Assembly (NCBI GenBank): GCA_038059695.1 | Contig: JBBTIZ010000069.1 | Coordinates: forward strand, 2,969 to 66,968 | DNA from: Planctomycetota bacterium | Lineage (GTDB): Bacteria > Planctomycetota > MHYJ01 > JACQXL01 | DNA: 64,000 nucleotides | Direction of reading: 5' to 3' | Part shown: one piece after another, positions 48,847 to 53,200 of the stretch | How positions within the stretch are numbered: the stretch's first letter is position 1 | Layout of the letters: every line of letters begins with the position of its first letter | The notes under the pieces: model-generated | What the model was told of the DNA's origin: nothing | Database searches by the model: none | Seen by the model: only the letters and a program-made list of their open reading frames with translations | Program-made: the position numbers and the translations under genes

Positions 48847-48937
48847 AACTATTTATTCTCCATTTCCAAGGGGAAACCCCCTTTATGTTTTACATTACAC
48901 TCACCCTGCCATTTACTTCACCCTACCATTTCCCCCT

Positions 48938-49090
48938 TTATCTGGCAAGGATTTGTTCCGCCGCCAAATTCTGTGACAGATTCCGGTGTTTTGAATTACC
49001 CAGATATTCATTAAGCGAGGAGACCTGCATCTTACCTTTACGGACTAGTTCAATGGCATTGGCCGCGGTTATCCTTTTGGGACACATCAT
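48938..49090 (-). pseudogene. Duplicated carB 3' end (50-codon ORF; last 43 codons colinear with the carB C-terminus)
   Basis: Positions 48921-49068 align without gaps to 50240-50387, with 128 of 148 identical (hand count). Translates as ..AANAIELVRKGKMQVSSLNEYLGNSKHRNLSQNLAAEQILAR. Confidence 0.8.
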
Positions 49091-49143
49091 TTAATTTTAT
49101 CCCCTTACTTCATTATTTCTTTCCCGGCGGTTTGAGGTATTTC

Positions 49144-49159
49144 TTGACCGACCGGTCAA
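49144..49159. promoter_or_regulatory. Palindrome TTGACCG-AC-CGGTCAA (operator-like)
   Basis: 7-2-7 dyad seen directly in the non-coding part of the cassette. Confidence 0.3.
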
Positions 49160-49318
49160 AATCGGACACATAATTCCGGTCTTCTAACCTTTCGGGTTCC
49201 CTCTTTTTGAACTACCGAGAAATCCTCGGAGGTTGCCTTGGCATTTAATTCGCCTTCGTCCCTATTCCTTACATACTATATAATATATTCTATATACTGG
49301 GCATCCTACCATTTTCCA

Positions 49319-50188
49319 TTATTTATCTTTTAGCCGTTTATTTTGCGGTTTTGAAAGATAGTTTTGCCGGGTTACCACCTTTTGACTGGTTTCCTGTTCC
49401 AGTTTTTTGCGGGCTATTCCCGCTACATTGCCGCCCCGTTGCGCCACACCCTTATTCTCACTAAAACCCTCAGGATGTTCCACTTTGGTTATCTCCGTGG
49501 TGGAGGCCTCTCCCAGCATAGAGAAAATCAGTTCCAGGTCAGTCATATGGTCGCGCAGGTTTTCCCGTTTCAGGTTTTTAAGTTTCTTGTACTGGCTGGG
49601 CGTAAGCCCAAATGTTGCCTTGGAGATTTCAGCGGTCAGTATTTCGTATTCCCGGTCTTTGGCAACGCCGCGCTTTTTCCATTCGTCGGTAAGTTCTTCA
49701 CGGATGGCAATTCCACGCATCCGTTTTTCCACCCAGTCGTCACTGTATCCCTTTGCCTTATACAATGCCCGGGTGCGTTTGGTGGCTATTTCCGGGTCTT
49801 CTATTTCCTGCACCCGTTCGTATCCGACCCGGGCCAGCCAACGTTTGAATGGCTCGGCCTTAGGCGAAGGGATGGATTGGATGATGCGGAACATCGCTTC
49901 GGTATTGGCGCAGTCCGTCTCGTATTTTTTGCCGTCTGATGATTCCAATTTCAGTTGTCGACAAAATGTCGACAACTCGGCGCCTTCTTCAGTTTCAACC
50001 CGCACTTTCATTCTATACCAATAATCGCGGGGATTTTCGCTTTCGGCCAACACGGCAATAACATCAACAACAGAAAAGAACCATTCATTTTTATGGATGG
50101 TCTTGCGGATTTTCCGGCCTCGGAAAACGGCTATTTTCGTTACAGGAACAAGTTCGCTATCGCGGTCTCTGCGGAGTTCGTTATTCAT
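49319..50188 (-). CDS. Bro-N / DinD-like (phage antirepressor-type) protein
   Basis: FRGRKIRKTIHKNEWFFSVVDVIAVL...PRDYWYRMK Bro-N pattern and the conserved YKAKGYSDDWVEKRMRGIAIREELTDEWKKRGV segment. Confidence 0.7.
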   Translation of the reverse strand: MNNELRRDRDSELVPVTKIAVFRGRKIRKTIHKNEWFFSVVDVIAVLAESENPRDYWYRMKVRVETEEGAELSTFCRQLKLESSDGKKYETDCANTEAMFRIIQSIPSPKAEPFKRWLARVGYERVQEIEDPEIATKRTRALYKAKGYSDDWVEKRMRGIAIREELTDEWKKRGVAKDREYEILTAEISKATFGLTPSQYKKLKNLKRENLRDHMTDLELIFSMLGEASTTEITKVEHPEGFSENKGVAQRGGNVAGIARKKLEQETSQKVVTRQNYLSKPQNKRLKDK

Positions 50189-50256
50189 AATTTACCCTTT
50201 CCGAAAACTGTGGAATTCCGGGGACAATCTTAGATTCTACCCTACCATTTTTGCCT

Positions 50257-53200
50257 TTATCGGGCAAGAATTTGTTCCGCCGCTACATTCTGGGATAAAT
50301 TCCGGTGTTTGGAATTATCCAAATACTCATTGAGCGAGGAGACCTGCATCCGGCCTTTGCGGACCAGTTCAATGGCATTGGCCGCGGCCCGGGCCGCAGT
50401 AATGGTGGTGATAAACGGTATGCCCAGTTCCACAGCCAGGCGCCGCATCCGGTAGCCGTCCCTTTTTGGCCCGCTTCCTTCAGTCGGCGTATTGATAATG
50501 AGTTTGACCTTGCCTTCCCGCATCAACGAGAGCGCATTGGGCGTCTGCCGTTCGCTGATGCGCCAGACCGTGGTCACCGGAATATTATTATTCGTCCCCG
50601 AAAAAATCGGGGCTCCGCCGCCGCTCCGCAGATATTCGGCCGTGCCTTTGGTGGCGATAATCGTCAATCCGTTTTCCGTCAGTTTGCGGGCAATCGGGGC
50701 AATCTTTTCCTTGTCCGAATCGCAGACCGTGATATAGACCTGGCCTGCGGTGGGCAATGAATTCCCGGCCGCCAGCAACGCCTTGTAATACGCCAGCCCG
50801 AATGATTTGTCTATGCCCATAACCTCGCCGGTGGATTTCATCTCAGGCCCCAAGATGGCATCCACCCCGGGCAGTTTCATAAACGGGAATACCGGCGCCT
50901 TGACCGAGACATAATCCACCTGCACCATTTCAATCAGTCCGAGTTCCTTGAGCGTGGCGCCCAGCATCAGTTTGGTGGCAATCTTGGCCATGGGGATGCC
51001 GATGGTCTTGGAGACATAGGGAACGGTCCGGCTGGCCCGCGGGTTGGCCTCAATCATATAAACCTTATTGTCCTTGACGGCCAACTGGATATTAATCAGC
51101 CCGATGGTCTTCAATGCCAGGGTCACCTCTTTGGTTATGCGCTTGATTTCTTCAATAATCTCCGGCTTGAGCGTCTGAGGCGGGATGACACAGCCGGCAT
51201 CGCCGGAATGCACCCCGGCCTCTTCAATGTGCTCCATAATCGCGCCGATAAAGACATCCTTGCCGTCCGACAGCGCGTCCACATCTATCTCCACGGCATT
51301 GGAGATATATTTATCCACCAGCACCGGATGTTTCTTTGATATCCGAGCCGCCGAGGTGATATAGAATTCCAGGTCCTTTTCGTTATGGACGATTTCCATA
51401 CCCCGGCCGCCCAGGACATAACTGGGCCGGACCAGGACCGGATAGCCAATCTTGGCGGCCAGCTCGCGCACCTCATCAAATGAATAGCCTGTATGCCCTT
51501 CGGGCTGGATAACGCCCATCTTGCGCATCAAGGCCTCAAACCGCCTGCGGTCTTCAGCCATGTCTATGGAATCAGCCGGCGTGCCGAATATTTTCGTCTT
51601 GAGGTCTTTGCGTTTGCTCAACTCGGCCTGGAGCGGCATAGCCAGATTAACCGAGGTCTGGCCGCCGAACTGGACCACCACGCCATCCGGGTTTTCCAGT
51701 TCAATAACATTCATAACATCCTCAAAGGTCAGCGGCTCGAAATAGAGCCGGTCCGAGATGTCGTAATCCGTGGACACGGTCTCGGGATTGTTATTGATGA
51801 TGATGGCCTTGATGCCCTGTTCGCGCAGGGCCATGACGCCGTGCACACAACAGTAATCGAATTCAATGCCCTGGCCAATGCGGATGGGTCCGCCGCCCAG
51901 GATGAGGACCTTATTCAGTTCAGAGTTTAGAGTTCGGGGTTTGGAGTGATGACTCTCCGAACTCCCAACTCCTATCTCCGAACTTGATTCATACGTCGAA
52001 TAGAAATACGGGGTCTTGGCCTCAAACTCAGCCGCGCAGGTATCCACCATCTTGTAAGAAACATTTATGCCCAGCGCCTTTCGATGCGCCGTAATCTTCG
52101 GCTCGTCTACTCCTAACACATAACCGATATATTCATCCGAGAATCCCATCTGTTTCAGATGATAGAGAAATTCTTTGTCCAGATTGTTCACCCCGTTAGA
52201 GATAGAGATTGCTTCGGTCGTTTCACTCCCTCGCAATGACGTCATTGCGAGTGGCGCCGCAGCGGCACGTGGCAATCCCGTACCGCATGACCCTTCTATG
52301 GTACCAATAGTGCTATCTCTAACGGGGCCAAGACCCCTTCGTTTCAATTCCTGTTCGGCCTTTACTATATTATGGAGCTTATTAATAAAGAAGATGTCCC
52401 ACTTGGTGATGTCGGCCAACGTGGTCGGCTGGTAACCCCGGCGCAGGGCTTCGACAATGGCAAAGAGACGCTTGTCGGTCGGCTCAACCAGTTCGCTAAG
52501 CAGCGTGGACTTGGACCAGGCCTCTGGCTCAATGGCAATCCGGTCTGTCTCCAGCGAGCGGACCGCCTTCATAATGGATTCCTCGACCGTCCGGCCGATG
52601 GCCATGACCTCGCCGGTGGATTTCATCTGGGTGCCGATGCGCCGGTCCACGGTCCGGAACTTGTCAAACGGCCAGCGCGGTATCTTCATAACCACATAAT
52701 CCAGTGCCGGCTCGAACGAGGCAAAGGTTTTCCCCGTCACCGAATTGGGGATTTCATCCAGCGTCAGCCCGACTGCAATCTTGGCCGCTACCCGGGCAAT
52801 CGGATAACCAGTGGCTTTGGAGGCCAGGGCCGAGGAACGCGAGACGCGCGGATTGACCTCTATGACCCGGTATTGTCCGTTGGCCGAATTAAGCGCAAAC
52901 TGAACATTGCATCCGCCTTCGATACCCAGCGCCCGGATAATCTTAAGCGAGGCATTGCGGAACACCTGATGGTCACGGTCGGACAAGGTCTGGGACGGCG
53001 CGATGACAATACTCTCGCCGGTATGAACGCCCATCGGGTCAAGGTTTTCCATATTGCAGATGATGATGCAGTTATCGTTCTTGTCGCGCATCACCTCGTA
53101 TTCATATTCAGCCCAGCCCAGCACACATTCTTCTATCAAAACCTGCTTGATGCGGGAATAACCCAGGCCCAGGGTAACGATTTCCTCGAGCTGTTCCTTG

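Follow-up and report, generated by a model that had tools for sequence, protein, structure and literature searches.

Introduction

The closest described counterpart of the locus reported here is found in Escherichia coli K-12, where the cryptic prophage e14, like phage 21, is integrated in the gene icd. The element supplies a replacement 3' end and the gene stays intact, while the displaced icd end persists on the far side of the element as the orphan icdC. We analyzed a stretch of 64,000 nucleotides (nt) from a Planctomycetota bacterium (GenBank assembly GCA_038059695.1, contig JBBTIZ010000069.1, positions 2,969 to 66,968 of the forward strand), in which carB, the gene for the large subunit of carbamoyl-phosphate synthase, likewise remains intact and is likewise accompanied, beyond a short insert, by an orphan copy of its own 3' end. 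This whole stretch is called the window, and all positions are counted from its first letter; the contigs and genomes compared with it carry L numbers. We conclude that small accessory genes, which may act in phage defense, have been inserted repeatedly at the 3' end of carB in this Planctomycetota clade. Our leading interpretation, offered tentatively, is an integration scar without integrase, similar to that of e14 in icd and to the cis-mobilizable elements (CIMEs), at which later accretion and decay took place.

CIMEs are decayed elements that retain attL and attR, the attachment (att) sites of the parent element, and by site-specific accretion new elements integrate beside old ones, giving tandem decaying composites (PMC5704250). 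Islands and prophages specific for dusA also integrate in a housekeeping protein gene and replace its terminal segment with element-borne sequence (PMC4482086). They share with the carB locus the replacement of a gene terminus, but they target the 5' end, always carry a DusA-associated integrase and measure tens of kilobases (kb). No report of carB as an integration target was found in a literature search.

Results

Two divergent copies of the carB 3' end

The gene and the two copies of its end are placed as follows (aa, amino acids; ORF, open reading frame):

50257 to 53754, minus strand: carB, carbamoyl-phosphate synthase large subunit, 1165 aa, the target gene (ORF; Pfam domains CPSase_L_D1/D2/D3 and MGS)
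50239 to 50387, minus strand: proximal repeat copy P, the working carB end, with the last 43 codons, the stop and 17-18 nt beyond it (repeat search, alignment)
48920 to 49068, minus strand: distal repeat copy D, an orphan carB end within the ORF 48938 to 49090 (repeat search, alignment)

The repeat search, together with a base-by-base alignment, gave a gap-free direct repeat of 149 nt between 48920-49068 and 50239-50387, with 129/149 positions identical (87%). Searched against the window by blastn, either copy gave E=3e-41. Similarity between P and D drops sharply past both edges of the repeat, as seen by base-by-base comparison, and no third copy of the carB end was detected in the window, either by sensitive blastn for DNA or by tblastn for protein. 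The first 22 nt of the repeat are identical in both copies, and the carB core at the junction reads CCGCGGCCAATGCCATTGAACT. As at icd, the insert lies between the two copies and the carB ORF is completed by the proximal one. Copy D lies in an intact ORF of 50 aa.

Fourteen codons differ between P and D, 11 of them by synonymous changes and three by conservative replacements (R/K, D/G and V/L). By the Nei-Gojobori method there are 13.5 synonymous and 3.5 non-synonymous differences, that is, a proportion of synonymous differences (pS) of 0.445, a proportion of non-synonymous differences (pN) of 0.037 and a ratio of the corresponding rates (dN/dS) of 0.056; the synonymous excess was significant in a binomial test (p=7e-7). 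Because the copies diverged under purifying selection, they must be two alleles that evolved as working carB ends, and copy D is the carB end of another allele rather than the decay product of a local duplication. The pair formed by icd and icdC gave a comparable picture when computed here: the e14-borne icd end and icdC are identical at 153/165 positions over 165 nt, with 10 synonymous and 2 non-synonymous differences, so that in both cases the differences between alleles under purifying selection are mostly synonymous (13.5 to 3.5 versus 10 to 2). A sequence-only reading of this DNA had already claimed a gap-free duplication of the carB end comprising the last 43 codons and some bases past the stop, an intact distal frame at 48938-49090, and the descent of that copy from a different allele, and on each of these points our analysis agrees with it.

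The same arrangement was found, at 99.3-100% identity, in the independent Hainich groundwater contigs L001, L003 and L102 and in a metagenome-assembled genome (MAG) from NCBI, L002. In total, at least five independent contigs from several wells show the same P/D structure, which is therefore no assembly artifact.

The last ~20 residues of carB are mutually unrelated in the window and in two relatives described below, L004 and L085, from which it follows that the tail is dispensable and that the site tolerates insertions. With the C-terminal 160 aa of carB as a protein query, only distant short fragments were matched, and the carB cluster at 90% yielded only an N-terminal fragment, split at the internal hinge.

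A separate feature of this gene is an in-frame palindromic insert of 137 nt (52191-52327) with perfect 15-nt terminal inverted repeats, which lies in the linker between the two carB halves and adds ~49 residues (..GSCGTGLPRAAAAPLAMTSLRGSETTEAISISNG..). The carB of L004 (1101 aa) is without it, and a short relative of the insert lies at the 5' end of miaA (44929-44996). In L103, carB consists of two ORFs, split at the hinge where the window carB has the insert.

Related lineages and the rhuM remnant

By searching with the 50-aa orphan ORF we located an 81-aa relative, encoded on the contigs L084-L088 from other metagenomes. The order in these contigs is carB, rhuM, orphan carB end, TPR protein, repeat protein and queC, with no Bro-N gene. 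In L085, the carB end and the orphan form a 77-nt direct repeat, 97% identical, with the copies 1402 nt apart, and RhuM is a protein of 332 aa (PF13310, E 3e-109). RhuM has been proposed as a toxin domain in defense loci by Anantharaman et al. (PMC3710099).

In the window, the segment next to the orphan end corresponds to what is left of this gene:

49113 to 49257, minus strand: rhuM pseudogene remnant, two fragments in different frames (blastn against L085, 96% and 87%; tblastn)
49069 to 49112, minus strand: spacer from the rhuM stop to the orphan carB end, common to L085 (L085 1522-1643 against window 49184-49063, 87%)

With the RhuM of L085 as the tblastn query, window positions 49177-49257 were found to encode RhuM residues 56-82 (26/27 identical), and positions 49116-49211, in the other frame, residues 302-331 (78%) followed by a stop; the E-values of the two fragments were 2e-14 and 8e-14. 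The 5' end of the gene is gone and ~680 nt are missing by internal deletion.

Because the orphan end, the rhuM 3' end and the spacer are common to the window and to a lineage in which rhuM is intact and Bro-N is absent, we infer that the duplication predates Bro-N. The orphan copies of the window and L085 are 93% identical, the spacer with the rhuM 3' end 87% and the internal rhuM fragment 96%, while the flanking queC-TPR-miaA genes are only 76% identical. Since the segment containing rhuM and the orphan end is more alike between the lineages than their genomes are, this comparison suggests that the segment spread horizontally.

The closest species-representative genome is L004, Planctomycetota MAG219, with a carB 86-90% identical at the nt level. 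Sliding identity of carB against L004 and L085 showed no clear break of the kind that would mark an imported tract upstream of the repeat. In L004, carB is followed by ~435 nt and then by queC, with no Bro-N, rhuM, orphan end, HNH gene or repeat protein. The carB site is thus empty at the genus level in L004, whose own carB tail is rearranged; as an empty-site comparison this genome is only ~76-90% identical to the window, and all the Hainich contigs are occupied. Right after the divergent carB tail, L004 has two copies of a ~50-nt repeat (7040-7190; ..cgtgctacagcgtatgatatgaggtattacaccgtagggca..), which suggests that its carB 3' end has also been remodeled. Overall, the site between carB and queC is polymorphic, with no island in L004, rhuM in L084-L088, and Bro-N plus rhuM remnants in the window, which supports the sequence-only reading on this point.

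The Bro-N gene

The remaining gene between the two copies and its leader are located as follows:

49319 to 50188, minus strand: Bro-N domain protein, 289 aa (Pfam PF02498, E 6e-12; PDC-S13; phrog_15286)
50189 to 50238, minus strand: leader of the Bro-N unit, 50 nt, including TCCCCGGAATTCC (50212-50224); conserved, with the motif described below, upstream of the Bro-N gene of L093

The protein is a full-length match to the PADLOC phage-defense candidate PDC-S13 (E 5.8e-122, with residues 17-284 aligned to positions 5-273 of the 286 in the profile) and belongs to phrog_15286, a family of unknown function. A literature search found no paper naming PDC-S13, and a PDB sequence search with the protein returned no relative of solved structure. 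The sequence-only reading had called the protein Bro-N/DinD-like. The Bro-N domain was recovered with Pfam; there was no detectable similarity to E. coli DinD (b3645), the best BLASTP E-value being 0.14. Some homologs carry the label 'DinD' at the Joint Genome Institute (JGI).

The family is large, with more than 8000 homologs scored, of which the best 120 are 73-99% identical to the window protein. The named sources among these 120 are Planctomycetota, Omnitrophota, Elusimicrobiota, Nitrospirae and the candidate phylum Daviesbacteria. The neighborhoods of the homologs are varied and often resemble defense islands, with Fic, HicAB, AAA_14/DUF4143, SNase or IS110. In the contexts inspected (L091-L094, L104, L106-L108) there was neither an association with carB nor a duplicated 3' end of the upstream gene, and Bro-N therefore has no general habit of replacing gene ends.

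A contig of low coverage from well H43, L090, is 99.6% identical to the window from the Bro-N start codon through the HNH gene. Upstream of the Bro-N ATG (L090:1-202), the 3' end of an unrelated low-GC gene takes the place of the carB tail and leader; it encodes 48 aa with no Pfam match and no match in the window. This difference hints at ongoing turnover on the carB-proximal side, or else L090 is a chimeric assembly.

Several further observations concern this gene. A 24-nt unit, CTCCGCAGAGACCGCGATAGCGAA (50153-50176), interrupts Bro-N in frame behind its fourth codon and is missing from L090. Two tandem copies of the same unit follow the fourth codon of a PilZ/NIL gene (6637-6687), which also resembles Bro-N in the ~15 nt before its ATG, and a single inverted copy lies where the 154-aa repeat protein has its signal peptide (47341-47367); the unit could be a tiny mobile or converting module of 5' ends. 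In L107 (4760-5860) and L108, from an unrelated organism, a Bro-N homolog with 84% aa identity stands between direct repeats of ~65 nt that hold a hairpin with a 10-bp stem (CTGTCAGGAGCTACTCCTGACAG), a cassette-like packaging with a different, genome-specific repeat. In L091, another Planctomycetota MAG, a 214-aa gene lies between 45-nt direct repeats that are 96% identical (7795-7839/8534-8578), and a 5'-truncated rhuM (112 aa) is found directly upstream of a Bro-N gene 91% identical to that of the window (9554-10797), so that rhuM and Bro-N occur together again, there away from carB.

A 12-nt motif and a promoter-like carB tail

A 12-nt motif, AAATGGTAGGGT at the carB tail, occurs four times as AAATGGYAGGRT within 1.35 kb, always on the carB strand, and nowhere else in the 64 kb. 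The motif copies and the features that go with them are:

50239 to 50250, minus strand: motif copy just past the carB stop, AAATGGTAGGGT (motif scan)
49303 to 49314, minus strand: motif copy 2, AAATGGTAGGAT, 4 nt past the Bro-N stop; the L093 motif likewise follows the Bro-N stop
48920 to 48931, minus strand: motif copy past the stop of the orphan copy (motif scan)
48903 to 48914, minus strand: motif copy 4, AAATGGCAGGGT, 5 nt further, a 17-nt tandem repeat of the preceding motif (repeat search)
48868 to 48884: hairpin after motif copy 4
50239 to 50267, minus strand: promoter-like TTGCCC-N17-TAGGGT, made of the last carB codons and the motif, facing the Bro-N gene (pattern scan)
48920 to 48948, minus strand: promoter-like TTGCCA-N17-TAGGGT at the end of copy D, facing the next gene (pattern scan)

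Between motif copy 2 and the rhuM remnant are 44 unassigned nt (49259-49302). The pattern TTGCCN-N17-TAGRRT has exactly two matches in the 64 kb, one per carB tail, and is similar to the region in which this genome has its carA promoter, TTGACA-N17/18-aaTGGTAAAT. The same arrangement is present in L091 and L093 with unrelated spacers, and for this reason a promoter role is favored. A simple scan for the sigma-70 consensus reported no promoter at the motif, as TAGGGT agrees with TATAAT at only 3/6 positions. Judging from these patterns, the carB-tail copies probably also drive the expression of downstream arrivals, and the role of the motif may be that of a promoter, a recombination site, or both. 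The possibility of an attC-like site was rejected, as all copies are on one strand with no inverted copy in the window. A search of Rfam with positions 46500-50600 gave nothing meaningful.

In L093, another Planctomycetota MAG, an 8-kb accessory array (3330-11002) comprises at least eight genes on one strand (AAA_14, a 101-aa ORF, Fic, a hemopexin-like ORF, Bro-N, an amidohydrolase, DUF6788/NTP_transf_8 and UDG), and most of them are followed by the motif or a close variant of it. Here the motif has the form (GGCGG)AAATGGTAGGRT, in 7-8 copies on the same strand, and an IS110-family transposase gene comes right after the last one. The sequence TCCCCGGAATT is found four times in the L093 locus and once in the window, in the Bro-N leader. 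The window and L093 have in common the motif and the 50-nt leader upstream of Bro-N, their homology spanning window positions 50255 to 49328. As this homology starts at 50255 and the homology between P and D extends to 50239, the carB tail and the Bro-N unit must be joined inside the motif. Immediately upstream of the last motif, L093 also has a decayed carB-tail-like sequence (~10890-10989), whose local alignment score, calculated with the motif excluded, was 17, against 8.4 +/- 1.3 and a maximum of 14.5 in 300 shuffles.

These results modify the sequence-only reading of the insert. Bro-N had been taken as a cassette bracketed by the carB duplication: the bracketing stands, but Bro-N as the maker of the duplication does not, since the lineage of L084-L088 has the orphan end without Bro-N, and the boundaries of the Bro-N unit itself coincide with the 12-nt motif instead of with the carB repeat. 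The interval had been thought to hold only the Bro-N gene and a TTGACCG-AC-CGGTCAA dyad, when it also contains the two rhuM fragments and the motif. The dyad, TTGACCGACCGGTCAA (49145-49160), is no recombination site and proved to be the ..FDRSVK.. coding sequence of the rhuM remnant.

Neighboring genes and the wider window

The order of the locus is carB, Bro-N, rhuM remnant with orphan carB end, 101-aa ORF with HNH gene, repeat protein and queC. The genes beyond the orphan end are:

47481 to 48846, minus strand: low-GC (31-36%) accessory module with a 101-aa membrane-like ORF (48541 to 48846) and a 301-aa HNH_5 protein (47481 to 48386; Pfam HNH_5)
46941 to 47405, minus strand: 154-aa secreted repeat protein with 21-nt tandem repeats; present in L084/L085, not in L004
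46182 to 46841, plus strand: queC, conserved, bounding the variable region on the right (Pfam QueC; syntenic in L004 and L084, ~76% nt identity)

The GC content at third codon positions (GC3) of the 101-aa ORF and the HNH_5 gene is 0.29 and 0.34, versus 0.68 for carB, and by synteny this module is missing from L004 and L085. The 154-aa ORF consists largely of the 21-nt repeats (46907-47292; 7 aa, KKSVVTG-like), and related repeats are found at the same place in L084/L085, where the assembly is broken by Ns at the tandem repeats.

Elsewhere in the window, a low-GC (36%) gene for a 326-aa repeat protein (YKYDDKGN-type, no Pfam match) is located between carA and carB (53801-54781), possibly as a further insertion in the car operon. 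The low-GC region that precedes the carA promoter (56100-56460) has ~15-20 tandem copies of a ~21-nt unit (..aaggacatacgatttgttc..). A type II restriction-modification pair (N6_N4 methylase and EcoO109I-family endonuclease; 15543-17121) immediately past the split guaA genes is a further small insertion of accessory genes beside a housekeeping gene. The sole tRNA gene of the window, a tRNA-Asn (11642-11716), is 37 kb from the carB site; immediately upstream of it is a degenerate tRNA-like sequence with the 5' portion of tRNA-Asn (11740-11830).

Discussion

A proposed scar of integration with later accretion and decay

The locus would have arisen in two steps. First, a small rhuM module would have entered by recombination within the last 43 codons of carB, bringing a replacement end with it and shifting the other copy downstream; we infer that the recombinase was site-specific and was later lost or acted in trans. 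Second, the Bro-N unit, composed of motif, 50-nt leader and ORF, would have become attached to the tail of carB within the motif past its stop, and most of rhuM would have been deleted. From the comparison of the lineages, the event that made the duplication appears to have involved the rhuM module and not Bro-N.

The topology and the numbers match those of icd and icdC, and to this extent the claim of the sequence-only reading, that an element entered the gene 3' end carrying a replacement end, is upheld. The size and the content do not: e14 measures 15 kb and has intE, xisE and phage genes, while the carB interval has 1.17 kb, one accessory gene and a pseudogene, with no recombinase encoded in it. 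In this respect the locus resembles CIMEs and accretion, such as the ICESt1/ICESt3 family at fda in streptococci, to which the nested Bro-N and rhuM remnant correspond. The newer unit is represented by its gene and the older module by fragments, the flanking repeats are kept as attL and attR are, there are no integration genes, and the arrivals were successive, Bro-N lying atop a truncated rhuM module that is intact at the same site in L085. However, CIMEs are defined against a known integrase of an integrative and conjugative element (ICE) or an integrative and mobilizable element (IME), and none is known at carB. Typical att sites, which at fda have ~27 bp, are also much shorter than the carB repeats and far less divergent, and conjugation remnants are lacking.

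Several results weigh against this interpretation. No integrase, excisionase, resolvase, transposase, relaxase, phage structural or conjugation domain was found in the ORFs of at least 120 aa of the 64-kb window, five of which had no Pfam match at all, and the related contigs L084-L088 show none of these either; the absence of a recombinase between the repeats, where there are only Bro-N, the rhuM fragments and the motif, had been correctly noted in the sequence-only reading. Both lineages carry a single-gene insert, with ~1.3-1.4 kb between the copies, which would not be expected of large elements that decayed independently, and the shared rhuM segment appears to have moved between lineages, at odds with a classical large element. 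The L093 array with its carB-tail remnant is not beside carB. At informative sites, D groups slightly with the L085 copies (5 differences, versus 8-10), but these counts are too small to tell whether P or D is the native copy. Finally, neither the strain-level empty site that the sequence-only reading led one to expect nor a circle junction was found, as an exact-pattern scan of metagenomes with the carB core GCGGCCAATGCCATTGAACTNGTCCG gave only the known L086; the same scan of a viral collection gave nothing, and the carB tail peptide had no relative among viral contigs.

Possible homologous recombination at carB

The missing recombinase would be accounted for if the site were a hotspot of homologous recombination through which the modules passed between related lineages, with carB as the left arm, the orphan carB end as a portable right arm, and RecA acting after transformation or transduction. 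A variant is the Campbell-type single crossover of a circle excised between the repeats. We consider this explanation possible but on balance unlikely. Among the three lineages, carB (84-90%) is far more conserved than the flanks (76%) and offers a good anchor; the right arm, on the other hand, is no longer than 149 nt and has an identity of 87-93%, a marginal substrate for RecA. Between the L085 copies, identity is 97% for 77 nt and falls to ~55% beyond, as in a gene conversion or crossover tract, and the sequences downstream of the orphan copy differ between lineages, but its left edge is the same within 8 nt in both, which suggests defined sites. Bro-N would have come in through homology-facilitated illegitimate recombination, with its anchor in carB and its other end in rhuM. 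Its right-hand joint, inside rhuM at residue 56, is what such an illegitimate end predicts, while the left one, precisely in the 12-nt motif, again speaks for defined sites over random crossovers. In addition, the origin of the first duplication is left unexplained.

Hypothetical cassettes directed by the motif

According to a third explanation, single-gene units bounded by (GG)AAATGGTAGGRT were moved between arrays by a recombinase. The native motif after the carB stop would then be the docking site, and one of the units would include the orphan carB end as its 3' part. The clustering of the motif in the window and in the L093 array is consistent with this, as are the Bro-N unit, bounded by the motif on both sides in the two genomes with different neighbors, the end of the P/D homology exactly at the 3' end of the motif, the tandem motif pair past copy D, the IS110-family gene right after the last L093 motif, and the carB-tail remnant of L093, distant from any carB. 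Yet recombination at the motif alone makes no 149-nt duplication, no recombinase is linked to the motif, and the pattern is documented in two genomes only. In four contexts with unrelated spacers, the motif also fits an extended -10 element (TGnTAnnnT) that has TTGCCN as its -35 at a distance of 17 nt, and thus selection for expression could explain its conservation. We regard the explanation as improbable.

As in integron cassette arrays and clusters of attC sites lacking integron-integrases (CALINs), L093 and the window have same-orientation, mostly single-gene accessory units split by a short recurring sequence, among them toxin- and defense-type genes. The carB motif differs from attC, with no inverted core partner and no attC hairpin, and it is promoter-like, when integron cassettes are usually promoterless. 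Neither inverted R''/R' core sites nor the combination of IntI with attI or at least two attC sites was present, and no IntI integrase or attC-like structure was seen at the locus. If there were nonetheless an undescribed cassette system in Planctomycetota, for which we see little likelihood, defense and accessory genes headed by a 12-18-nt (GGCGG)AAATGGTAGGRT would be exchanged by recombination in that sequence. It would act as both outward promoter and junction, with the copy at the carB stop as the docking site and the orphan tails of the window, L085 and L093 as by-products.

A local tandem duplication of the carB end with decay and an unrelated insertion, or an assembly artifact, is effectively excluded, for although direct repeats 1.3 kb apart could in principle arise in this way, the values of pS and dN/dS point to long evolution as functional carB ends in separate lineages, a second lineage has a parallel structure with other cargo, and the structure recurs in the independent contigs.

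Meaning for the host and the site

Integration scars that replace a gene end, with accretion and decay, are a well-known phenomenon, and in this sense the carB locus is a useful worked example and no surprise. What is possibly new is the unusual host, a target gene that has not been reported, and perhaps a unit structure bounded by a motif. The host phylum is uncultivated and, to our knowledge, its mobile elements are almost unknown. The variable candidate defense or toxin genes between carB and queC (PDC-S13 Bro-N, RhuM and HNH), with a content specific to each lineage, are reminiscent of defense-island hotspots; these are usually without a duplicated core-gene end, while the carB site has the displaced end and the motif as explicit junctions. 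The 22-nt identical carB core and the 12-nt motif can be searched as such in other genomes. Additionally, the promoter-like carB tail suggests how genes that land there are expressed without signals of their own. If our interpretation is true, carB would join icd, fda, dusA and the tRNA genes as a chromosomal docking site, and its modules would be single-gene, integrase-less units with candidate defense and toxin genes.

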